The notes: a model not told the origin generated them from the letters alone. A stretch of DNA of 64,000 nucleotides from a bacterium (GCA_035945995.1 DASYZR010000166.1:4855-68854); one strand, 5' to 3'; shown: positions 2,182 through 53,231, counted from the stretch's first letter. Made by a program: numbers and translations.

Positions 2182-3699
2182 TTAGTACCCCGCCTGCTTG
2201 AGGAGTTCCCGCGCCTTCATCGGATCGTACGGATACGGTTTGAGCGACGGGTCGTACCCGAAGCCGTTCGGCAGGAACGCCGTGCTGAGCCGCGTCCCGT
2301 AGCCGTGGTAGATGTCGCGGAGGATCGGGGCCCAGTTGATCGCGTAGTTCACTGCCTGCCGCACCCGCGGATCGGTGAACGGGTCCGCCTTGGTGTTGAA
2401 CTCGATCTCGTAGGAGCGCGTGCCCTCGGCGGTCTTCACCTGCACGTTCGGGCTCGCCTTCAGGCGGTCCACGAGATCCGGCGGTACTTCCTGGATGATC
2501 TGCACCTCGCCGGACAGCAGCGCCGCGATCCGGCCGGACGGCTCCGGGATCATCCGGAAGATGACCTGCCGCAGTTTCGCCGGGCCGGCCCAGTAGCCGT
2601 CGTAACGCTCGAGGACGATCTCGGAGTTGAGGGCGCCCCGCACGAACCGGAACGGGCCGGCACCGACCGGCTTCGCGATGAATCCGGCCTCGCCGGCCTG
2701 CTGCGTGTACTTCTGCGGCACGACCTGGAAGTGGACGAGCGACTGCAGCATGAGCGCCTCCGGAAACGAGGCGCCGTAGACGAACCGCACGTGCGAGTCG
2801 TCCCGTTTCTGCACGCGGAGGATCGGTCCGAGCAGATCCTTCCGCGTGGTGGAGACGCCGCTGATCGCGCCGGGCGTCAACACCCGCTGAAACGTGAAGA
2901 CGACGTCGTCGGCGGTGACCGGATCACCGTTTTGGAATTTGACGCCGGGACGAAGCGTGAAGTCGTACACCGCCGGCCCGACCTTGCGCCACGACGTGGC
3001 AAGCTGCGGGACGACCTTTCCGTCCGGGCTGTGGCCCACCAGTCCGTCGTAGATGTTGCGCAGCACCGCTTCCCGGTCGTTCGGGGGAATGCCCGGATCG
3101 AGCGGCGCGATCGAGTCGTTGCGCATGCCGACGATGATCGTATCGCCGCCCCGCACGCTCGCCGGATACATCGTCTCGCTGTTGTCGGCCGCCGGGACCC
3201 AACCGGCCACCGCGGAGGACTGCGCCTCGATGTTCTGCAGCACGTATCCGAACGCCCAGGGCGCGTCGGCGTAGATCCTCCGCTGGGCGTCGTAGTACGC
3301 GGCCTGCCGCTGCGCGTCGTTCGGGGTGCCGGAGGCCACCGCCATGTCGTGATCCACCGCGGGGTTCGAGTAGAACGAGAAATTGCCGCGTGCTTGGGTC
3401 ACAAACTTCGGCACGGCGAGATCGTAGGGATCGAAGTAGGCGCTCCCCCAGTCGGTCGTGTAGGCGGCCCGCTGCCCGGCCCGGACCTGCGCGATCAGCA
3501 CCGACAGCTGCCACGCGCGCACCTGCGCGGTGATCCCGGCCCGGCCCAGTTGCGCGGCGATCGCCTGGGCTTCCGTGGCTCGGTTCGGCGTCGTGTCCAG
3601 GACGAACGACAGCGCCCGGGCCGCGTCGCCGCGCGTCCCGCCGAGGAGCGAGACGCCGAGCAGCGCCGTGGCCAGCACGGCGGAGATCCGTTTCTTCAT
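2182..3699 (-). CDS. ABC transporter substrate-binding protein, family 5 (DppA/OppA-like)
   Basis: 505-aa ORF with an N-terminal signal peptide (MKKRISAVLATALLGVSLLGG) and family-5 substrate-binding composition. A strong GGGGGG ribosome-binding site precedes the ATG. Confidence 0.9.
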   Translation of the reverse strand: MKKRISAVLATALLGVSLLGGTRGDAARALSFVLDTTPNRATEAQAIAAQLGRAGITAQVRAWQLSVLIAQVRAGQRAAYTTDWGSAYFDPYDLAVPKFVTQARGNFSFYSNPAVDHDMAVASGTPNDAQRQAAYYDAQRRIYADAPWAFGYVLQNIEAQSSAVAGWVPAADNSETMYPASVRGGDTIIVGMRNDSIAPLDPGIPPNDREAVLRNIYDGLVGHSPDGKVVPQLATSWRKVGPAVYDFTLRPGVKFQNGDPVTADDVVFTFQRVLTPGAISGVSTTRKDLLGPILRVQKRDDSHVRFVYGASFPEALMLQSLVHFQVVPQKYTQQAGEAGFIAKPVGAGPFRFVRGALNSEIVLERYDGYWAGPAKLRQVIFRMIPEPSGRIAALLSGEVQIIQEVPPDLVDRLKASPNVQVKTAEGTRSYEIEFNTKADPFTDPRVRQAVNYAINWAPILRDIYHGYGTRLSTAFLPNGFGYDPSLKPYPYDPMKARELLKQAGY

Positions 3700-3774: not shown

Positions 3775-4098
3775 TCAGTCGAGCGGCACTTCGAGGTCGA
3801 GGAGCGGCGCGTACTGCTGCGCCCCGAAGATGTCCGGGTCGCCGGGACTGCCGCTCGGCCGGCTGCGGTACACCGTGAACTTGATCGCGCACCCGGGATC
3901 GAACGCGACGAAATCCGAGATGCGCGTCTCCGGGATGTCGTAGAGGCGCGCGACCGACGCTTTGGTCACGGCGCCGCTCTTCAGCGTGCGCTCGTAGGTG
4001 TCCCGGTCGGCGAAGATGATGTCGAAGGTGATCTTGTCGACCCCGGCGTTCTTGCTGCGCACGACCTTGGCGAGGCTCGAGAGCTTGGCGGTTTTCAT
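3775..4098 (-). CDS. DUF4387 domain protein (partner of DUF1446/AtuA-like)
   Basis: 107-aa product (MKTAKLSSLAKVVRSKNAGVDKITFDIIFADRDTYE...) matches the DUF4387 pattern. Its ATG overlaps the upstream DUF1446 stop as ATGA. Confidence 0.75.
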   Translation of the reverse strand: MKTAKLSSLAKVVRSKNAGVDKITFDIIFADRDTYERTLKSGAVTKASVARLYDIPETRISDFVAFDPGCAIKFTVYRSRPSGSPGDPDIFGAQQYAPLLDLEVPLD

Positions 4099-5504
4099 CG
4101 CCGGCTCACCGCCTCGCCGGCGCCGCGTCCGGCGGGGGTGCCTGTTCCCACGTCGATCAAGTGCAGCGGGAACAGCTCGAGCGGATCGCTCACCCGGAGC
4201 GTATGGTTCACGGTCCACCGGTAGGCCGCGCTGGCCGGCAGCACTTCGTCGAGCGGGAACGCCACGCCGCCGGCGGTGCCCTTCACCTCGGGCAGGCGCG
4301 CGTAGAAGAGCTGGCGCGTGCCGATCATGCACACTTCCTCGGCCATCTCCTTGCTGGGGGCCACGCCGTAGACCACAAGGCCGAGCTCGTGCGCCGGCGT
4401 CCGGACGGGCTCGAGATCGCCCATGACGCCGTTGCGGCCGAACACCTGGTAGTGCAGCTCGTAGCCGGCGGTGCCGAACTTTTCCTCGACCGCGTGACGT
4501 GCCCAGCCGATGACGCCGTCGATGTTCGCGATCGTGTAGGGATCGCGGATTCCCGCGATGCCGACGTAGCGCTCTCCGACCTTGCCGGCGCCTTCCAATT
4601 TGACCCGCGGCTCGGCCGCCGGGTTCCAGACCGGGCCCGTGATCCGCGTCGTACGCGCGTCGAACTGTTCGTACCGGCACCCCCGCATGTCGAGCTCACC
4701 GCCGAGCGCGTACTCGAAGAACGGGTTCGACCGTTCGTACATCGCATGCCCGGCGACCGACGCGATTGTGCAGCGCTGGTCCGGGTGCATCGCCGTAACC
4801 TTCACGTCCTCCATCGAAATCTCGCCGATCACGCTTTCCTTGGCGCCGTAGGGCTCGGCGCAGAAGGAGGCGCACTCGAGCACCTTGCCGAGATAATAGG
4901 ACAGCGCCTCGGGGAAGCCGGCGCTGATTGCCGGGCCGGCGCAGATCGCGAGGTCGCTCGAGCGGCCGCCGATGATGACATCGGCGCCCCGATCGAGCAG
5001 CGTGTTGTAGGGGTGGATCCCCGCCATCGCGACGATCCGGTCCGTCGCCTCGAGCTCCGCGAGCGTCAGGTCGGCACGGCCGTTCAGCCCCGCGACCGTC
5101 TCGCCGGCGGCGATGCGCCGGCGCACCAGATCCTTGGGGACCTCCGAGTAGAAGTAGCCGAGGCGGAAGGGCGCGAGGTGACGGCGCGAGGCGATCTCGC
5201 GGATCATCTCGACGTACATGTCGACCCGGCTGTTCGACCCGGTGTCGCCCGCGGAGCCGATCAGCATCGGCACCCCGAGCCTCCGAGACGCCAGCAGGAT
5301 GTGCTCGAGGTCGTGACGCTGCCATTCCTTCGGGCTGGTGCAGGTGTCGGAGCCGAGCGGGCCCGGCCCGATGTCGTCGCTGCCCGAGTCCGAGACGATG
5401 AAGTCGGGGTGGGCCGCCACCCCCAATTCGAAGCTGCCGAGCCTGAGCGGCGCAAAGCCCAGATGCCCGTTTGGGGCCAAAAAGCGCAGTGTCTTGCCAC
5501 CCAT
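4095..5504 (-). CDS. DUF1446 family protein (AtuA-like, acyclic terpene utilisation-related)
   Basis: 469-aa ORF with real-protein composition (Y/F/K/I/M-rich). Shows AtuA/DUF1446-like N-terminal features and the conserved pairing with DUF4387. Confidence 0.8.
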   Translation of the reverse strand: MGGKTLRFLAPNGHLGFAPLRLGSFELGVAAHPDFIVSDSGSDDIGPGPLGSDTCTSPKEWQRHDLEHILLASRRLGVPMLIGSAGDTGSNSRVDMYVEMIREIASRRHLAPFRLGYFYSEVPKDLVRRRIAAGETVAGLNGRADLTLAELEATDRIVAMAGIHPYNTLLDRGADVIIGGRSSDLAICAGPAISAGFPEALSYYLGKVLECASFCAEPYGAKESVIGEISMEDVKVTAMHPDQRCTIASVAGHAMYERSNPFFEYALGGELDMRGCRYEQFDARTTRITGPVWNPAAEPRVKLEGAGKVGERYVGIAGIRDPYTIANIDGVIGWARHAVEEKFGTAGYELHYQVFGRNGVMGDLEPVRTPAHELGLVVYGVAPSKEMAEEVCMIGTRQLFYARLPEVKGTAGGVAFPLDEVLPASAAYRWTVNHTLRVSDPLELFPLHLIDVGTGTPAGRGAGEAVSRR

Positions 5505-5517
5505 TCGTCTGCCTCCA

Positions 5518-6324
5518 TCACGCCACGATGTGGGCCAAGCGCTCGATGTTGAACTTGTACCGGTCGCCGCGGTACACGGTGCGGCGGTACTCTACCGGCT
5601 CACCGCCGGGTGCCGAGATCAGCGAGGTCACGTTGAAGACCGCCGCGGGCCGGTCGAGCGAGAGCAGCGCGGCCTCCTCGGCGGTCGCGAGACGCACTTC
5701 AAACGTCTGCTCGGCCCGCAGCTCGGGGAGGCCCGTGCGCTCCGCGTAGAGTTCCGAGAGCATCCGCGGCCTCCCGGAGGCCGCGGCCCGGCAAAAGATC
5801 TCAACGGTCTCCGCCGCCTTGGCGGCGGGGAAATAACTCCGGTAGATGGCGAGCGGCTCGTCGTCCCCGAGCCCGAGACACACGAGATGCAGCAGCGGTG
5901 TGTCCGGCGGGATACCGAGCAGCCGGCTCAACACCACATCGCCCGGCTCCTGCGTCCGGCTCACGACACGCAGTCCCGGGATCATGCCCTGCGCGGCGAG
6001 CGCCTCGCGAAAGGCCGTGACTCGTCCGAGGGGCTGGGTAATCGGCCCGTGCGCCGCGACGAACGTGCCGCGCCCTTGAATCTTCTTGAGCAGCCCCGCG
6101 CGCGCGAGATGCTCGAGGGCCTGCCGGACCGTCGACCGGCTGACACCGAACTGCTCGGAAAGATCGCGCTCTGAGGGCAGCTGTCCGCCGGCGCCCCAAT
6201 CGCCCTTGCGGATCCTGGCGTTGATGGATCCGAGCAGCTGCCGGTAGAGGGGTCCGCGGCCTCGGGCGTAGACACCCGGGCCCATCTTCCGCCCGTGCCT
6301 CGCGACGTCCGGACGCTGCGCCAC
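5518..6324 (-). CDS. GntR family transcriptional regulator (HutC subfamily, HTH + UTRA domain)
   Basis: Has the GntR winged helix-turn-helix motif (LPSERDLSEQFGVSRSTVRQALEHLARAGLL) followed by a UTRA-like effector domain. Confidence 0.85.
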   Translation of the reverse strand: MAQRPDVARHGRKMGPGVYARGRGPLYRQLLGSINARIRKGDWGAGGQLPSERDLSEQFGVSRSTVRQALEHLARAGLLKKIQGRGTFVAAHGPITQPLGRVTAFREALAAQGMIPGLRVVSRTQEPGDVVLSRLLGIPPDTPLLHLVCLGLGDDEPLAIYRSYFPAAKAAETVEIFCRAAASGRPRMLSELYAERTGLPELRAEQTFEVRLATAEEAALLSLDRPAAVFNVTSLISAPGGEPVEYRRTVYRGDRYKFNIERLAHIVA

Positions 6325-6362
6325 GCGACTCCCACTCCCCGCTGGTTCATACCTGATAGCTA

Positions 6363-6379
6363 TGTGGTACGTACCAACA
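6363..6379. promoter_or_regulatory. candidate HutC-type operator: perfect 12-bp palindrome TGGTACGTACCA about 40 bp upstream of the GntR start
   Basis: The palindrome is seen directly in the sequence and resembles dre-like GTGGT-N-ACCAC operators of HutC/DasR regulators. It sits in the lower-GC intergenic region upstream of the GntR gene. Confidence 0.35.
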
Positions 6380-6508
6380 TCGGATTCGCCCTGGCGTCTT
6401 AGCTTCCCTGCCTCATCAAGTGGATCTGATGGGTCTATCGGAGTCTAAATTCGATCCCGCCGTTGTCGAGGCGTTTCGTGCGTTCGTGACCGTGGCGGGC
6501 TCTGGACG

Positions 6509-47399: not shown

Positions 47400-48308
47400 T
47401 TAGATCTTGAGGCGCGGGTCGAGCACGTCGCGCAGGCCGTCACCCAGCATGTTGACGCCGAGGACGGTGAGCATGATGGCGAGGCCGGGAAAGGTGGCGA
47501 TCCACCAGGCGTCGCGCAGGTAGTCGCGGCCCTCGCTCAGCATCCGGCCCCACTCCGGCGTCGGCGGCTGGCTGCCGAGCCCGATGAACGAGAGGGCGGC
47601 GGCCGCGAGGATCGCCGTCCCCATGCCGAGCGTGCCCGCGACGATCACCGGCGCCACGACGTTCGGCAGAATGTGGCGGACGAGGATGATCGGGACCGGG
47701 ACCCCGGTCACCCGCGCGGCCTCCACGTACAGCTGTTCCTTCGCGACCAGGACCGACCCGCGCACCAGCCGCGCGTACACCGGGATGCCCGCGATCCCGA
47801 CGGCGATCATGAGGTTGCGCAGGCTCGGGCCCAGCACGCTGACGATGCCGAGCGCGAGCAGGATGCCGGGAAACGCCAGCATCACGTCCACGGCCCGCAT
47901 GAGGAGCGCGTCCGCGAGCCTGCCGTAGTAACCGGCGAGGAGGCCGATCGCGGTGCCGGCCGTCGCGGCGATGCCAACCGAGATGAGCCCGATCGTGAGC
48001 GAGATGCCGGAGCCGTGCACGACGCGGCTGTAGACGTCGCGGCCGTACTGGTCCGTGCCCATCGGATGCCCGGGGCCCGGCGCGGCCAGTGCGTTGGCGA
48101 CGTCGATGCGGATCGGGCTCACCGGTGCAAACGCGTATTGGAAGACCGCGATCACGACCAGCGACCCGACGATGACGAGGCCCGCGACCGCCCCTTTGTG
48201 CCGGCGGGCGCGCCGGACGGCCACCTGCCAGCGTGCGCGCGGCAGGCGTCCCCGCGCCCCGCCGGCGGGCGCCCGGACCGCGTCCACCGCGGCGAGCGGT
48301 CTACCCAT
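47400..48308 (-). CDS. ABC transporter permease, DppC/OppC family
   Basis: C-terminal 302 aa of ORF 47400..49049. Typical DppC topology with an N-terminal extracellular loop (HPMGTDQYGRDVYSR). Confidence 0.9.
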   Translation of the reverse strand: MGRPLAAVDAVRAPAGGARGRLPRARWQVAVRRARRHKGAVAGLVIVGSLVVIAVFQYAFAPVSPIRIDVANALAAPGPGHPMGTDQYGRDVYSRVVHGSGISLTIGLISVGIAATAGTAIGLLAGYYGRLADALLMRAVDVMLAFPGILLALGIVSVLGPSLRNLMIAVGIAGIPVYARLVRGSVLVAKEQLYVEAARVTGVPVPIILVRHILPNVVAPVIVAGTLGMGTAILAAAALSFIGLGSQPPTPEWGRMLSEGRDYLRDAWWIATFPGLAIMLTVLGVNMLGDGLRDVLDPRLKI

Positions 48309-48334
48309 CCGACCGGCGCCCGGCGTGCGCGCGA

Positions 48335-49258
48335 TCACCCGTAGCGAATCCGGGGATCGATCGCGGCATACACCACATCGACGGCCAGGTTGATGAGCAC
48401 GTAGGCGACCGCGACGAACAGCACGATGCCCTGCACCAGCGGAAAGTCCTTGTTGAGAATCGCGTTGACGAGCAGCCGCCCGACGCCGGGCCGGCCGAAG
48501 ACGGTCTCGATGACCACGGTGCCGGCGAGCAGCTGCCCGGCCTGCAGTCCGAAGATGGTGACGATCGGAATGAACGCGTTGGCCAGCCCGTGACGCAAGA
48601 TCACGGAGGCGCCGGCAAGGCCCTTGGCCCGCGCGGTGGTGATGTACTCCATCCGCAGCACCTCGAGCATGCTGGACCGCGTGAGCGCGGCCGTGATCGC
48701 CGCGGCGCCGGTGCCGAGCGCCACGGCCGGCATAATGAGGTGCTGCAGGCCGCCTCCGCCGGTGGCCGGCAGCAGCTCGAGGTGCAGCGAGAAGACGAAG
48801 ATCAACAAGAGGCCCAGCCAAAACGACGGCATGGAGACCCCGAGGCGCGCCGCCATCATCGCCCCGACGTCGGCCCAGGAGTTCTGGCGGATCGCGGCCA
48901 CGAGGCCGAGCGAGACGCCGAGGGTGCCGGACAGCACCAGCCCGGCGACGGCGAGCTGCAGTGTGGACGGGAACAACTCCATGATCTCGGTCGTGACGGG
49001 CCGCCGGTCGCGAATCGACTCGCCGAGGTCCCCCCGCGCGGCATTCCACACGAACCGGCCGTACTGCTGCGCGAACGGCTCGTTGAGGTGCAGTTGCGCC
49101 CGCATACGGGCGATCTGCTCCGGGCTCGTCACGAATTCGCTCAGCATCATCTTGACCGGATCGCCGGGGATGAGGTACAGCATCGAGAACACGGCGAGCG
49201 TGACGCCGAAGACGACGGGGACCGTCGCGAGGAGCCGTGCGGAGATGTAGCGGAACAC
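48335..49258 (-). CDS. ABC transporter permease, DppB/OppB family
   Basis: GTG start. N-terminus FRYISARLLATVPVVFGVTLAVFSMLYLIPGDPV. Confidence 0.9.
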   Translation of the reverse strand: MFRYISARLLATVPVVFGVTLAVFSMLYLIPGDPVKMMLSEFVTSPEQIARMRAQLHLNEPFAQQYGRFVWNAARGDLGESIRDRRPVTTEIMELFPSTLQLAVAGLVLSGTLGVSLGLVAAIRQNSWADVGAMMAARLGVSMPSFWLGLLLIFVFSLHLELLPATGGGGLQHLIMPAVALGTGAAAITAALTRSSMLEVLRMEYITTARAKGLAGASVILRHGLANAFIPIVTIFGLQAGQLLAGTVVIETVFGRPGVGRLLVNAILNKDFPLVQGIVLFVAVAYVLINLAVDVVYAAIDPRIRYG

Positions 49259-49260
49259 GC

Positions 49261-50526
49261 TTACGTGTTGCGGACGACGGGGTTGCCGCCGAGGAGAACC
49301 ATCGCCGGACGCCGCAGGACCGCGAGGTTCTCGAGCGGATCCCCGGCGACCGCGATCATGTCGGCGTGGAGGCCTTCCCGCAGCGCGCCCACCTCATGGG
49401 CGATCCCTATGGCCGCGGCCGCCCCGGACGTCGCCTCGGTGAGCGCCTCTGCCGCGGACGCCCCGGACTCGTGCAGCAGCTCGAGCTCGGTCACGAGGCC
49501 GTCGAACGGGGTGAAGCGCCAGCCGGCATCGGTGCCGGCGACGTAGCGCACCCCCGCCCGCCGCATGCGCCGGGCATGATCGAGGTTGGCATCGTTCATC
49601 CGCCGCCACCGTTCCACGGCGGCCCGGTCTTCCCCCGTCGCCTCCGCCCGGGTCGAGAGTGCGCCGACCAGGAAGTGTCCGACGCACAGGGTCGACGTCA
49701 CCGCCACCTCCCGCTGCGCGACGGCGTCGGCCACGTCGGCCTCGAACCGCGAATGCCCCTCCGCGTCGGTGATGAAGAGCGCGTGTTCGATGTGGTCCGT
49801 CCCCGCGGCGATCGCGTTCCGGGTCGCCTGGGCGCAGGTGCAGTGGATGCCGACCCGGCGGTTGAGCCGGTGGGCCTCGTCCACGGCGGCGCGGAGCTCC
49901 TCGACCGTGTACGACGGCCGGGACGAGTCCGTCCCGCGGGTGCCGCCGCCGCTCCCCATGATCTTGATGTAATCGACGCCGGCCTTGGCGAGCGCGCGGA
50001 CCATCCGGCGCATGCCCTCGGGGCCGTCCGCCTCTCCGCCGAAATACCAGCAGTGCCCGCCGGTGATCGTGACGGGACAGCGGCACAGGTGCAGCCGGGG
50101 GACCTGGACGTACCCGAGGCGCTGGGCCCGCCGGAGATGCAGTGTGGTGTCGCGCATGCCGCCGCAGTCCCGCAGCGTGGTGATCCCGGCGCGCAGCGCG
50201 GCCTGGGCGTTCCGGAGCGCCGTCGCCAGCAGCACGCCGTCCGGCTCCCGCACGGAGTCTTCGAACGGCGTCCCGTCGCCGGGCAGCACCAGGTGTACGT
50301 GCGCGTCGATCAGCCCCGGCAGCAGCGTGTGGCCGGAGAGGTCGAGATGGGGCGTCCCGGCGGGCCAATCGCCGGGCGGCCCCGCACCACCCAAGACGCT
50401 GTGGATCATCCCGCCCCGCACGACGACCGTGGGATCCTCAATGGGCGGGCGGCCTGTCCCGTCGATCAGGCGGGACGCGCGGACGACCAGCCACCCGGGG
50501 GGAGCGGTCACGGCGCTATTCGGCAA
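49261..50526 (-). CDS. amidohydrolase family protein (metal-dependent hydrolase, TIM-barrel)
   Basis: Metal-binding HxH motif (LIDAHVHL) and further His/Asp ligand regions. 421 aa. Confidence 0.85.
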   Translation of the reverse strand: MPNSAVTAPPGWLVVRASRLIDGTGRPPIEDPTVVVRGGMIHSVLGGAGPPGDWPAGTPHLDLSGHTLLPGLIDAHVHLVLPGDGTPFEDSVREPDGVLLATALRNAQAALRAGITTLRDCGGMRDTTLHLRRAQRLGYVQVPRLHLCRCPVTITGGHCWYFGGEADGPEGMRRMVRALAKAGVDYIKIMGSGGGTRGTDSSRPSYTVEELRAAVDEAHRLNRRVGIHCTCAQATRNAIAAGTDHIEHALFITDAEGHSRFEADVADAVAQREVAVTSTLCVGHFLVGALSTRAEATGEDRAAVERWRRMNDANLDHARRMRRAGVRYVAGTDAGWRFTPFDGLVTELELLHESGASAAEALTEATSGAAAAIGIAHEVGALREGLHADMIAVAGDPLENLAVLRRPAMVLLGGNPVVRNT

Positions 50527-50547
50527 CGACCGTGTCGCTCACACGGC

Positions 50548-52152
50548 CTACTTGCCGATCGTCACATCGCCGAGCACGGGGTACGTCGAGAAGTTGTATT
50601 TCGTATCGTGCACGGTGTTGCGGATCACCCAGACGGACAGCTCGTCCACGAGCGGGATCGAGACGGCGTCGTTCATGAGGATCGTCTCCATCCGGTCGTA
50701 GATCACGCGCCGCTTCGCCGGATCGAACGCCGCGCGGCCATCGGCGATCAGCCTGTCCACTTCCGGATTCGCGTAGCACGACCAGTTGAAGTTGCCGCCG
50801 ACGTTTTGCGAGGCGAACAGCGCGTACAGCCCGTCCCAGTCCGTGGAGCGCAGGAACATCACCGGGCCGTTGGTGGCGCAGTGGTAGTTGTCCTCGTACC
50901 ACGGCGGCCGCGCCTGGCTCTTGATCTTGGCGTCGACGCCCAGCTGGAGCAATTGCCCCTGCAGCAGCTCGATCTCGGGCAGGTTGCCGCTGCCGTAGTT
51001 GATCGAATTGATCTCGATCGTGAGCGGCTGGCCGTTCTTGGTCCGGATGTTGCCGGGGCCCATCTTCCACCCGGCTTCGTCGAGCAGCGCCGCCGCCTTC
51101 TTCGGATCGTACTTGTACTTGGCGCACAGCGCCGGGGTGCCGAGCGTGTGCTGGGTGAGGGGCGCGCACGCCGCGGTGCCGGTTCCCCGGAAGACCGAGT
51201 CGACGAACGCGGCGCGATTGAGCCCGTAGAGGAGCGCCTGCCGCACCTTCACGTCGTTGGTCGGCGGCCTGCGGACGTTCAGGAGCCAGATCCGCGGCGC
51301 GCCGGGATACGGGTTCTTCTCCACGCGCAGGGCCTTGTTGCCCTCCAGGCGCCGGAGCACCGAGGCCGGCGTGTTGAGGAAGCTGATCATCTGCGTCTCG
51401 CCCGATTCCACCGTCGTGACGCGCGTGCCGGACTCCGGGATGAACTTCCACACGATCCGGTCGACGGCCGCCGGGCCCTGGCGGGTGCTGTACGGCGGCT
51501 TGCGGTTGTACTCGGCGTTGCGGACCAGCGTGACGTGGTCCTTGGCGACGTACTCGCTGACGGTGAACCGTCCGCTCCCCACCGGCTTCTGGTTGACCGC
51601 GTCGCCCTGCCCCGGCGTGGTCTTCGGCGAAATGAGCGACAGGGTCCCCCCGGAGACGTAGGTGAGGAAGGGCGCGTAGGGTTCTTTGAAGTTCACCCGG
51701 ACCGTGTAGGGATCCACGACCGTGGACCCGGCGTAGCCCGTCAGCGCGAGCAGCGCGCCGCCCGCTTTGAAGTTCGGGTTGACGATGCGGTCGAAGTTCC
51801 ACTTCACGGCCGCCGCGTCGACCGGAGCGCCGTCCGAAAACTTCGCGTCCTTCCGCAGCGCGAACGTGAACGACTTGCCGTCGGGCGCGGCCTTGTACCC
51901 GGTGGCCAGCCACGGGAGCAGCTTCCCGCCCAGGTCCTGGTACAGCAGGTTCTCCGCGACGTCCGTGATGATCTGGTAGGTCACGGCCGACGGCGACGCG
52001 GCCGGATCGAGCGTGGGCGGCTCCTGGTCCAGGCCGACGGTCAGCGTGCCCGGCGCGGCGCCGAGCGCCGGCGGACCGGCGCCGACGGCGGCGAGGGCGA
52101 GCAGCGTGAGGCAGAGCACGACGTGTCGCCACGCCGCGGGCAATCGACTCAA
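50548..52152 (-). CDS. ABC transporter substrate-binding protein, family 5
   Basis: Signal peptide (LSRLPAAWRHVVLCLTLLALAAVGA). Putative TTG start with a GGGAGG ribosome-binding site 7 nt upstream, overlapping the galT-like stop as TTGA. The listed ORF extends spuriously to 52263. Confidence 0.85.
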   Translation of the reverse strand: MSRLPAAWRHVVLCLTLLALAAVGAGPPALGAAPGTLTVGLDQEPPTLDPAASPSAVTYQIITDVAENLLYQDLGGKLLPWLATGYKAAPDGKSFTFALRKDAKFSDGAPVDAAAVKWNFDRIVNPNFKAGGALLALTGYAGSTVVDPYTVRVNFKEPYAPFLTYVSGGTLSLISPKTTPGQGDAVNQKPVGSGRFTVSEYVAKDHVTLVRNAEYNRKPPYSTRQGPAAVDRIVWKFIPESGTRVTTVESGETQMISFLNTPASVLRRLEGNKALRVEKNPYPGAPRIWLLNVRRPPTNDVKVRQALLYGLNRAAFVDSVFRGTGTAACAPLTQHTLGTPALCAKYKYDPKKAAALLDEAGWKMGPGNIRTKNGQPLTIEINSINYGSGNLPEIELLQGQLLQLGVDAKIKSQARPPWYEDNYHCATNGPVMFLRSTDWDGLYALFASQNVGGNFNWSCYANPEVDRLIADGRAAFDPAKRRVIYDRMETILMNDAVSIPLVDELSVWVIRNTVHDTKYNFSTYPVLGDVTIGK

Positions 52153-53231
52153 GGCGCACCTCCCTGGGCTCCGGTGGGACTGGCCACCGGGATCTTCGTC
52201 TCCCGGAGATACCGGGCCGCGTCCTCGGGCGGCACCGTATTGATGTAGAACCCGGACCCCCACTCGAACCCCGCGACCTGCGAGAGGCGCGGCAGCACCT
52301 CGATGTGCCAGTGGTAGAAGTGGTCAACCCTGGCGTCGTACGGGGCGGTGTGAATGATGTAGTTGTACGGCGGGTTGGCGAGACAGGCGTGGATCCGTCC
52401 CAGGACGGCCTGCACGGTCTCGGCGAGCGGCCGCAACTGCACGTCTTCGAGCGCGCCGAAGCTCGCGGTGTGGCGGCGGGGAAGGATCCAGAGCTCGAAC
52501 GGGCACCACGACGCGTACGGCGCGAAGGCGACGAACTCGTCGTTCTTCCACACGAGCCGCCGACCGTTCCCTTCCGGCCCTTCTCCCACCTCCTGACGGA
52601 GGATGTCGCAGAAGACGCAGCGGCCTTCGCGCGCGAAGTAGGCCTGGGCGCCCTCCAGTTCTTCCTCCGCCCGTTTCGGCACGATCGGCATGGCGATCAA
52701 CTGCGAGTGCGGATGCGCGAGCGACGCGCCCGCCTGCCGGCCATGGTTGCGGAACAGCAACAGGTACTTGAAACGCGGGTCGCCGTCGAGATCGCGGTAG
52801 CGCTCGCGGTACATCCACAGGACCGACGCGAACTGATCCGGACTCATCACCCCGGGATGCGCCGCGTGCTCGGGCGTCTCGATGATGACCTCGTGGGCGC
52901 CGACGCCACCCATGCCTTCGAACATGCCCTCCCAGGTGACGTCTGTCGATCCCTCGATGCGGAGCGCCGGGTACTTGTTCGGGACGACCCGCACCTGCCA
53001 GCCCGGCGTGTCGGGTGCGGTCCCCGGCCGGCGAATCGCGACGATCTCCGGCGGGGTGGTGCTCTCGTGGCCTTCGCAGAACGGACACGTCGATGACGGC
53101 GCGGCGAGCGGCTCGTTCTTGGCGAAGTCGCTCGGGCGGGCCGCCCGCTCGTTGGCGACGATCACCCACCGGCGGGTGATCGGATCTTTGCGCAGCTCGG
53201 GCACGGCATCCCTCCGTGGTTGGGACGGCAT
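52149..53231 (-). CDS. galT: galactose-1-phosphate uridylyltransferase family protein (GalT-like, HIT-like)
   Basis: HPH active-site motif (AHPHSQLIAMP) and Zn-binding Cys/His (CPFCEGH). Confidence 0.85.
   Translation of the reverse strand: MPSQPRRDAVPELRKDPITRRWVIVANERAARPSDFAKNEPLAAPSSTCPFCEGHESTTPPEIVAIRRPGTAPDTPGWQVRVVPNKYPALRIEGSTDVTWEGMFEGMGGVGAHEVIIETPEHAAHPGVMSPDQFASVLWMYRERYRDLDGDPRFKYLLLFRNHGRQAGASLAHPHSQLIAMPIVPKRAEEELEGAQAYFAREGRCVFCDILRQEVGEGPEGNGRRLVWKNDEFVAFAPYASWCPFELWILPRRHTASFGALEDVQLRPLAETVQAVLGRIHACLANPPYNYIIHTAPYDARVDHFYHWHIEVLPRLSQVAGFEWGSGFYINTVPPEDAARYLRETKIPVASPTGAQGGAP

Follow-up and report, generated by a model that had tools for sequence, protein, structure and literature searches.

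A bacterial DNA stretch of 64,000 nucleotides (hereafter the window) carries a GntR/HutC-family regulator gene followed by a DUF1446/DUF4387 gene pair and parts of an ABC importer, which raises the questions of what these genes take up and break down and how they are controlled. We approached these questions through the gene content, the homologies, the conservation of the operator, its co-occurrence with the regulator and the conserved neighbourhoods, all of which were observed directly. Genes were located by ORF calling and Pfam, and independent gene calls on the identical public contig agree, confirming the gene placement and order of an earlier sequence-only reading, with all of these genes on the minus strand. 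The regulator (268 aa, with a winged HTH and a UTRA effector domain; Pfam GntR and UTRA) is encoded at 5518-6324, the large subunit of a CmlAB-like pair (DUF1446/AtuA family, 469 aa; Pfam) at 4095-5504, and its small subunit (DUF4387, 107 aa; Pfam DUF4387, 116 bits) at 3775-4098. They are followed by a family-5 ABC substrate-binding protein (SBP_bac_5, 505 aa; split Pfam and NCBIfam matches) at 2182-3699, a DppB-type permease (336 aa; Pfam BPD_transp_1 and BPD_transp_1_N, and gene call) at 1140-2150, and a DppC-type permease (305 aa; Pfam BPD_transp_1 and OppC_N) at 226-1143. The regulator stop codon lies 13 nt from the ATG of the DUF1446 gene, and because this gap holds a GGAGG, we take the regulator gene as the first gene of the operon. 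The ATG of DUF4387 overlaps the DUF1446 stop codon, as the previously noticed ATGA coupling implied, and the DppC start likewise overlaps the DppB stop. The gap before the binding-protein gene is 75 nt long and contains no site of the types O1 and O2 described below. Downstream of dppC follow a convergent Amidohydro_1 metallohydrolase gene on the plus strand (PRK09237/EF_0837 type, 397 aa on the full contig), of which the window holds the 3' end at 1-229, and then metG. The best explanation is that the six genes gntR(hutC-type)-cmlA'-cmlB'-sbp-dppB-dppC form a predicted operon under one control site.

The first question concerns the chemistry of the gene pair. The biochemistry of DUF1446 and DUF4387 had been called unresolved in the sequence-only reading, a view that is out of date because PDB entries 9ERQ and 9EVF assign both families to the citramalate lyase CmlAB, as its subunits A and B. 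CmlAB of Raoultella planticola is a two-subunit, CoA-independent lyase that splits citramalate into pyruvate and acetate, 9ERQ being the complex with AMPPNP and citramalate. The window pair is homologous in sequence and fold to the solved CmlAB over the full length, with 32% identity for the large subunit and 44% for the small one (E 3e-21 against 9erq_B), and the motifs DxGSxDxGP, GGRxxD, GK(V/I)LECA, YExSxP, KLEGA, RDP and NGVMG are common to both. By tblastn, 78 of 80 orthologous loci have the DUF4387 gene immediately after the large-subunit gene; of the two exceptions, one is a contig that stops at this point and one a degenerate cluster. The cmlA' and cmlB' products would form a heteromeric enzyme homologous to CmlAB, which most likely would act on a 2-hydroxy (di)carboxylic acid by breaking a C-C bond, with a 2-oxo acid and acetate or a similar small acid as products. 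The CmlAB-type family comprises about 1,700 clusters at 50% identity.

The automatic name "AtuA family", which public records carry for these proteins, implies a different role, namely the utilisation of acyclic terpenes such as citronellol and geraniol. AtuA of Pseudomonas and Thauera belongs to the same Pfam family (PF07287) as the large subunit, which matches this profile above its cut-off (54.4 bits against 22.8) over profile positions 87-408 only. AtuA has tentatively been described as an acetate-releasing lyase of a 3-hydroxy-3-substituted acid, formally the same chemistry as citramalate cleavage. However, a match of 54 bits is weak, and AtuA consists of one chain of about 600 aa (615 aa in Thauera) that is encoded in an atuABCDEFGH cluster and acts on a CoA ester, whereas the window encodes a split pair of 469 and 107 aa. 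Moreover, recurrent atu-type carboxylase, hydratase and dehydrogenase genes occur in none of the 80 orthologous neighbourhoods. A role in terpene utilisation is thus exceedingly improbable.

A more serious question is whether the window pair has the same function as CmlAB and is a genuine (S)-citramalate lyase, in which case the operon would import and degrade citramalate or a precursor such as mesaconate. In favour of this reading, full-length homology links the two subunits to chains A and B of 9ERQ, and many motifs are kept. Furthermore, beta-proteobacterial orthologues are accompanied only by a TctC carboxylate receptor and a regulator, as would be expected if a free dicarboxylate were broken down to central metabolites in one step. 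The identities, however, are only 32% and 44%, compared with 91% and 84% to 9ERQ for an E. coli pair located in a glmS-glmL-glmE-mal-...-gltP-fumarase cluster; the same E. coli pair is 32% and 45% identical to the window proteins. Among plasmid matches, orthologues of the window pair are 67-71% identical and all other family members at most 39%, and this gap sets the orthologues apart as a separate clade, which is conserved at 67-92% across Bacillota, Deinococcota, Desulfobacterota and Proteobacteria. The genomic settings differ as well. CmlAB is flanked by genes for glutamate mutase, methylaspartase and mesaconase (glmSLE, mal, fumD), none of which was found beside the window pair or in the 80 orthologous loci; the window clade is instead associated with importers and amide hydrolases. 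A Dpp-type importer and amide hydrolases would be an odd setting for a free dicarboxylate, and neither a mesaconase nor a fumarase gene lies nearby. We consider isofunctionality with CmlAB unlikely. Judged by sequence comparison, the window pair is a distinct paralogous clade and not the orthologue of CmlAB, and its substrate may differ substantially from citramalate because of the 32% identity to CmlA and the lack of cmlAB-type flanking genes.

Further clues to the substrate came from the neighbourhoods of the pair, which we surveyed in the 80 orthologous loci from several phyla. Such profiling had been proposed as a check, and it links the pair to transporters across phyla: 44 of the 80 loci have Dpp-type importers, 16 have TctC carboxylate receptors, and a few have importers of the TRAP, SSS or Fbp-like kinds. 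Where the importer is of the Dpp type, amide hydrolases from differing families usually occur with it. Of 51 full-length loci, 30 have such an enzyme (C26, C45/AAT, amidase-signature, M20 or S15), and 12 of the 21 full-length loci that have none carry TctC. The combination of importer and amide-hydrolase neighbours suggests, at the level of gene context, that the substrate is a hydroxy acid, either imported as such or released from an amide conjugate. In the lineage of the window, the Amidohydro_1 gene is a possible candidate for the amide-hydrolase partner of the operon, as it also lies beside DppC in three orthologous loci (L001, L002 and L003) and is co-directional in L003. Against this partnership, the gene is convergent in the window and lies outside the operon. 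If it were the partner, the adjacent amidohydrolase would split an amide-linked precursor.

The importer itself is unusual. It had been described as a peptide-type ABC importer, and SBP_bac_5, DppB and DppC components are indeed present, but "peptide-type" rests on the family name only, and the binding protein is circularly permuted. Its residues from about 27 to 183 correspond to the C-terminal third of a canonical binding protein (canonical residues 352-512), and residues from about 177 to 505 correspond to the N-terminal two thirds (canonical residues 16-351). The permutation is seen in the split Pfam and NCBIfam matches and in BLASTP comparisons with the canonical binding proteins of alpha-proteobacterial orthologous loci. 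The AF2 model of the protein has a pLDDT of 91, and a Foldseek search with it against the PDB aligned only 340-360 columns at TM scores of at most 0.56. The ligands of the closest solved folds are peptides, glutathione, opines, sialic acid and nickel chelates, and the best weak NCBIfam and Pfam matches are GsiB, NikA and DppA; because all NCBIfam scores are far below their cut-offs, the ligand is not transferable by homology. This permuted family-5 clade comprises at least 120 clusters at 90% identity, and we found neither a literature report nor a solved structure of a permuted family-5 topology. A precedent for natural permutation of the periplasmic binding-protein fold is provided by Tp0684 (MglB-2) of Treponema pallidum, described as a naturally circularly permuted binding protein (PMC4990184), which is of the glucose/galactose type and not of family 5.

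Like importers of the Dpp/Gsi/Nik type (family 5/cluster C), the window encodes one SBP_bac_5 protein and permeases of the DppB/DppC type. Dpp/Opp-type importers, in contrast, have the canonical domain order in the binding protein and two ATPase genes, whereas the binding protein of the window is permuted and its ATPase genes are missing. Genes for DppD/F were found neither in the cluster nor elsewhere in the 64-kb window, nor in the loci L001-L005, L010 and L081, the last being a copy of the window's own contig; L007, L012, L018 and the alpha-proteobacterial loci do carry them. The absence of these genes means that the module is not self-contained, contrary to what had been supposed. The ATPase subunits would be supplied from elsewhere in the genome, and the Dpp-type permease together with the permuted binding protein would import the substrate or possibly an amide-linked precursor of it.

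We then considered the regulator. Its assignment as a HutC-subfamily GntR protein holds: the N-terminal winged HTH matches PF00392 with 72.8 bits (cut-off 27) at residues 26-89, and the C-terminal UTRA domain, which has the chorismate-lyase fold, matches PF07702 over the full model length with 87.9 bits at residues 111-257. The N-terminus MAQRPDV is kept in the orthologues. The protein aligns over its whole length with the structures of its best solved relatives, NagR/YvoA of Bacillus subtilis (E 4e-33) and DasR of Streptomyces (E 6e-26), with which it has the GntR winged HTH and UTRA domains in common, and its recognition helix and wing (LPSER..EQFGVSRSTVRQAL..GRGTFV) are nearly as in NagR. 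Overall identity to NagR and DasR is nevertheless about 30-35%, and their orthologues control nag, pts or chitin genes, whereas the genes downstream of the window regulator are cmlAB-like and dpp-like. No NCBIfam equivalog cut-off is reached by the regulator, the best scores being 126 against 156.8 for PhnF and 115 against 220 for HutC. The downstream genes, the missing equivalog assignment and the centre of the operator box (see below) set the regulator apart from the orthologues of NagR and DasR, and an amino-sugar phosphate is an unlikely effector.

HutC-subfamily operators are palindromic, with GT...AC or TGGT-N4-ACCA half-sites beside the regulated genes, and those of NagR and DasR have the TGGT-N4-ACCA frame in common. 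A 12-bp palindrome had been noticed about 40 bp before the regulator, and the perfect palindrome TGGTACGTACCA (O1, 6365-6376), usually flanked as in cACTGGTACGTACCAC, indeed lies 40 nt upstream of the GTG start codon at 6324. Whereas the sequence-only reading named one palindrome, the candidate operator is a tandem pair of boxes. The second box, O2 (6343-6354, minus strand), reads AGGTATGAACCA (consensus NGGTATGNACCA). Its start is 22 nt from that of O1, 18 nt separate its end from the GTG, and the Shine-Dalgarno sequence GGGAG follows it directly. Both boxes have half-sites of the TGGT-N4-ACCA type beside the regulated genes. The likeness to the DasR/NagR dre boxes (consensus ACTGGTCTAGACCACT) that had been drawn earlier applies to the outer TGGT...ACCA half-sites and to the usual O1 flanks ACTGG...CCAC, which resemble this consensus, but it does not extend to the four central bases, which are ACGT in O1 and ATGN in O2 as compared with CTAG or ATAG in dre.

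Is the palindrome the operator of the adjacent regulator? It could instead be a chance occurrence, a site of another DNA-binding protein or a hairpin in the transcript. O1 is the sole copy in the 64-kb window even when two mismatches are allowed, and a match at up to two mismatches is expected by chance (0.71 expected; at least one match in 52 of 100 shuffled sequences). The lone occurrence in the window is therefore not significant by itself, and its significance comes from conservation. Each of the 11 fetched loci that have the orthologous regulator and its upstream DNA contains the exact O1 12-mer once, in the same position, and none of the 143 remaining loci contains it. These 11 loci include L081 and represent eight non-redundant sequences besides the window, with regulators of 68-85% identity; the palindrome, whose absence before orthologous regulators had been named as a refutation of its role, is identical in all eight. 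When the nine upstream regions are aligned, the only invariant columns are the 12 of O1 (9/9 sequences) and 10 of the 12 of O2, and mean pairwise identity is 0.94 in the boxes compared with 0.34-0.40 in the flanks and spacer. The starts of O1 and O2 are 20-22 nt apart in all loci. The genes upstream of the conserved O1 vary among the loci (aspartokinase, M20 peptidase, PAS/GAF/HD-GYP protein). In L001, the lyase genes are 92% identical to those of the window, and both the regulator and the box are missing.

This conservation in eight independent loci with different upstream genes and diverged flanks, the strict co-occurrence of O1 with the regulator gene, and the fit of the TGGT-N4-ACCA frame to HutC-family operators, together with an HTH close to that of NagR, make the non-operator explanations very improbable. 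A 6-bp stem without a loop is also not credible as a hairpin. The palindrome thus behaves, in these alignments, as a candidate operator of the adjacent regulator. Additional sites of the O1/O2 type in the 64-kb window amounted to four half-quality matches with one mismatch (25509, 28436, 48049 and 49793; 1.9 expected), and an Rfam scan of four orthologous loci found nothing. In L016, a distant HutC paralogue is divergent from the cmlAB-like genes, and GTGGTATATACA and GTGGTTAATACCAC are found in the shared intergenic region. We also considered the regulators of the Moorella group (36-38% identical) as support for the operator and rejected them, since their intergenic repeats ACGTTATAAC and ACGTGATAAC contain no TGGT-N4-ACCA box.

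The arrangement of the boxes suggests how control might work. Dimers of the HutC-type regulator most likely occupy O1 and O2, which stand in tandem about two helical turns apart. Binding immediately 5' of the ribosome-binding site would repress its own gene and the genes downstream until a small-molecule effector, probably the transported compound or its breakdown product, binds to the UTRA domain. Those members of the HutC family whose mechanisms have been solved or studied (NagR, DasR, HutC, PhnF and TreR) are repressors released by pathway metabolites. Alternatively, the regulator might activate the operon, or its signal might have nothing to do with the transported compound. Additional GGTATATAC-like boxes, located farther upstream in L083, point in this direction, as does the control of orthologous lyase genes elsewhere by activators (sigma-54 EBPs, LysR), and the scan of the upstream region fixed no promoter position. 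The only sigma-70-like match in the promoter consensus scan, TCGACA-16-TAGACT at 6469-6442, lies about 65 nt upstream of O1, a distance that is not conserved in the orthologues, and inspection by eye gave no consistent -35/-10 elements across the loci. Activation is nonetheless at odds with the repressor role of the studied family members, and in most orthologues O2 abuts the ribosome-binding site at 11-18 nt from the start codon, a placement that is usual for repression. We regard activation, or an unrelated signal, as improbable and favour repression.

The overall explanation, in which the regulator and its operator control an operon for a CmlAB-like lyase and an importer, is in our judgement somewhat probable. 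A broader proposal is more tentative and may well prove wrong. The clade of CmlAB paralogues, 67-92% identical in at least four phyla, might be the core of a widespread catabolic module for another hydroxy-(di)carboxylate than citramalate. Many bacteria would import an amide or isopeptide conjugate of this acid by a Dpp-type system, several lineages using a permuted family-5 binding protein, and a lineage-specific amidase (C26, C45, amidase-signature, M20, S15 or Amidohydro_1) would hydrolyse the conjugate. The acid would then be cleaved without CoA by the nucleotide-binding lyase.

As a whole, the locus is a sound new instance of parts whose kinds are already known. O1 and O2, with their strict phylogenetic footprint, and the orphan HutC-family regulator make up an operator-regulator pair that is ready to test, and, if the conjugate-import proposal is true, the regulator would sense a class of metabolites for which no regulator is known. 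A clean natural case in which the topology changes and the transport function is kept is offered by the permuted family-5 binding protein. The formerly anonymous "AtuA family/DUF4387" pair is now tied to the CmlAB lyase as a separate, very conserved clade with a genomic logic of its own, and this clade is well suited to the search for a second substrate of the CmlAB enzyme family.

Gene coordinates were taken from open reading frames and Pfam matches together with independent gene calls on an identical public contig, and they bear out the earlier description of the named genes as minus-strand and of DUF1446 and DUF4387 as ATGA-coupled. The genes encode a GntR+UTRA regulator (5518-6324, minus, 268 aa), an AtuA/DUF1446-family protein (4095-5504, minus, 469 aa), a DUF4387 protein (3775-4098, minus, 107 aa), an SBP_bac_5 binding protein (2182-3699, minus, 505 aa), and permeases of the DppB (1140-2150, minus, 336 aa) and DppC (226-1143, minus, 305 aa) types. 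Stop and start codons overlap as ATGA between DUF1446 and DUF4387 and likewise between dppB and dppC, only 13 nt, with GGAGG inside, lie between the regulator stop and the DUF1446 ATG, and the 75-nt gap 5' of the binding-protein gene contains a Shine-Dalgarno sequence and no operator-like box. The six genes therefore form one operon, with the regulator gene first. The G+C content of the window is ~70%, public metagenome contigs labelled "bacterium" contain an identical stretch, and the nearest relatives, identified by scanning genomes for the DUF1446 protein, are Bacillota MAGs.

The same-strand upstream neighbour is a threonine-pathway block with aspartokinase last. It is a complete aspartate-family block directly upstream of the regulator (minus strand, 6509 to about 14000; 1283-8996 in L081, the public copy of this contig), comprising DHDPS-like, homoserine dehydrogenase, threonine synthase, homoserine kinase and aspartokinase genes. 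About 130 nt separate the operator from the aspartokinase stop codon; read-through into the operon is conceivable because no terminator was detected between the two. Downstream lie a convergent Amidohydro_1 gene and then metG. The former encodes a metallohydrolase of the PRK09237/EF_0837 type (1-229, plus; L081 15276-16469; 413 bits), and its stop codon overlaps that of dppC by 4 nt. Its product may serve the operon as an amidase partner, because the gene's position beside dppC is kept in two related loci (L001 and L002) and it is co-directional in a third (L003).

The sequence-only reading had placed a perfect palindrome about 40 bp upstream of the regulator, and box 1, TGGTACGTACCA, indeed lies at 6365-6376, 40 nt upstream of the GTG start codon (6324). 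Its single occurrence in 64 kb is no proof in itself, and a shuffle control at ≤2 mismatches was unremarkable. Searching genomes with the DUF1446 protein yielded 80 loci, and searching metagenomes with the regulator yielded 8 orthologous loci (68-85% identity). The exact 12-mer recurred at the same position in every locus having an orthologous regulator and upstream DNA (L002, L004/L087, L082, L083, L084/L085, L086, L088 and L089), which was the check proposed for the palindrome, and nowhere else in the 154 loci. A second box, NGGTATGNACCA, begins 20-22 nt past the start of box 1; its version in the window is AGGTATGAACCA (6343-6354). In the nine-sequence alignment, all 12 columns of box 1 and 10 columns of box 2 are invariant, and no others, with a mean pairwise identity of 0.94 for the boxes versus 0.34-0.40 for flanks and spacer. 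The genes 5' of the operator vary by locus (aspartokinase, an M20 peptidase, or a PAS/GAF/HD-GYP protein), and box conservation is therefore not inherited synteny. Where the regulator is absent, in L001, whose lyase genes are 92% identical, the box is absent too.

NagR and DasR operators have the frame TGGT-N4-ACCA, as do the boxes here. The recognition helix and wing of NagR are almost those of the window regulator; the commonest flanks (cACTGGTACGTACCAC) are similar to the dre consensus, whereas the central four bases differ. We conclude that boxes 1 and 2 are the predicted operator of the adjacent regulator, arranged in tandem with a spacing of about two helical turns, so that the palindrome described earlier stands as one half of the operator rather than as its whole. 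In most loci, 11-18 nt separate the end of box 2 from the start codon, which places it directly at the ribosome-binding site, and binding at the tandem boxes should, given their placement, repress. Neither a consensus scan nor the orthologous upstream regions located a promoter. Three orthologous loci share a conserved element of ~45 nt (AGTAATGTTRCACAATTG..GGTTTACAGACATC) 100-190 nt upstream of the operator (L084, about 2790-2850; L086, about 2390-2450, in the divergent intergenic region beside the PAS/GAF/HD-GYP gene; L088, about 300-350); it matched nothing in Rfam, and the window lacks it. In L004/L087 the cluster is degenerate: regulator and operator are intact, but the large-subunit gene is truncated, encoding about 400 aa, and neither DUF4387 nor transporter genes are present.

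The view that DUF1446/DUF4387 biochemistry is unresolved is outdated. PDB entries 9ERQ and 9EVF name both families as subunits of citramalate lyase, the AtuA-family chain as "citramalate lyase, subunit A (cmlA)" and the DUF4387 protein as "subunit B (cmlB)"; 9ERQ, an AMPPNP-citramalate complex, was released in October 2025. A 2026 preprint mentions the use of citramalate lyase from Raoultella planticola, received as a gift. This identity closes a gap recorded in a 2015 account, which placed a DUF1446 gene of E. coli O157 downstream of methylaspartate ammonia-lyase when the fate of citramalate was unknown. The window pair aligns end to end with CmlAB (32% identity over 452 aa for A, 44% over 98 aa for B) and has many motifs in common with its chains. 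An E. coli pair, set in glmS-glmL-glmE-mal-DUF1446-DUF4387-gltP-fumarase, shares 91% and 84% identity with 9ERQ, but only 32% and 45% with the window proteins. Plasmid matches split into two groups, 67-71% versus ≤39%, with none between, the 79 orthologues from the fetched loci all share 30-37% identity with 9erq_A (chain A), and the family overall comprises about 1,700 clusters at 50% identity. As judged from sequence, the window pair are not CmlAB orthologues. The namesake AtuA is described, tentatively, as an acetate-releasing lyase of 3-hydroxy-3-substituted acyl-CoA, formally the same chemistry as that of CmlAB. End-to-end homology to CmlAB without orthology, together with the like chemistry of AtuA, leads us to assign the pair as a putative CmlAB-like C-C lyase of a hydroxy acid.

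Profiling of neighbourhoods, which had been suggested for inferring the substrate class, was carried out by clustering the ORFs of 80 loci and naming recurrent clusters with Pfam. In the genome scan, the clade (67-92% identical) spans Bacillota, Deinococcota, Desulfobacterota, and Alpha-, Beta- and Gamma-proteobacteria. The lyase genes are side by side in essentially all loci, and transporters almost always adjoin them: 44 loci have Dpp-type systems and 16 have TctC carboxylate receptors (chiefly in Achromobacter and Cupriavidus), a few have TRAP or SSS carriers, and Terrarubrum has an Fbp-like ABC system. Regulators differ in type, with sensor-less sigma-54 activators in 37 loci, RpiR in 13, GntR/HutC in 9, and also LysR. 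At about 290-390 aa, the sigma-54 activators (L021, L030, L039, L045 and a further 33 proteobacterial loci) are short, with an AAA+ domain and HTH_8 in the same layout as PspF; they lack an N-terminal sensor domain, and a partner protein must therefore supply their signal. Also recurrent are amide hydrolases from no fewer than six unrelated families: C26 (14 loci), C45/AAT (24), amidase-signature (8), M20, S15 and the Amidohydro_1 gene that is syntenic in the window's own lineage. They occur in 30 of 51 full-length loci, and 12 of the 21 without one have TctC instead. The Desulfarculaceae operons are the most compact (sbp-dppBCDF-C26-cmlA'-cmlB'-rpiR). The profile points to a carboxylic acid as the simplest reading of the lyase substrate, which would be imported as such or freed intracellularly from an amide conjugate after uptake.

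The binding protein (2182-3699, minus) has a circularly permuted family-5 fold. Its residues from ~209-228 to 505 match the first two thirds of the Pfam and NCBIfam models, and the canonical C-terminal third comes first, immediately past the signal peptide. Against the binding proteins of alpha-proteobacterial orthologous loci as the canonical reference, residues 177-505 correspond to 16-351 and residues 27-183 to 352-512; the break falls at the inter-lobe boundary, after ...LL.EAG(F/Y), and the former termini are fused directly. Orthologues in Deinococcota, Desulfarculaceae and Moorella share the colinear permuted order, as do all of the best 120 database clusters (hence at least 120) from several phyla, including Carboxydichorda subterranea. 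The AlphaFold model is confident (pLDDT 91); Foldseek against the PDB aligned only 340-360 columns at TM ≤0.56, and no solved structure with the permuted family-5 order was found in that PDB search. Tp0684 is reported as a natural permutation in another binding-protein family (PMC4990184).

No DppD/F ATPase genes were detectable in the operon, elsewhere in the 64-kb window, or in the closest relatives and Deinococcota versions (L001-L005, L010 and L081). Two ATPase genes are present in the Desulfarculaceae, Moorella and alpha-proteobacterial versions. The importer's ATPases must therefore act in trans, and the module, contrary to the earlier proposal, is not self-contained. A second Dpp-like set at about 47400-52300 (minus; binding protein 27%, DppB 41% and DppC 43% identical to the first) likewise lacks recognisable DppD/F genes beside it; weak one-mismatch operator-like matches inside it, at 48049 and 49793, are probably due to chance.

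The original observation is thus confirmed and strengthened, and its interpretation is right in part. The locus is a HutC-type, probably autoregulated catabolic and uptake operon made of parts of known kinds, whose enzyme belongs, by homology, to the just-characterised CmlAB family. Its interest rests on the substrate, the effector, the role of the nucleotide and the permuted binding protein.
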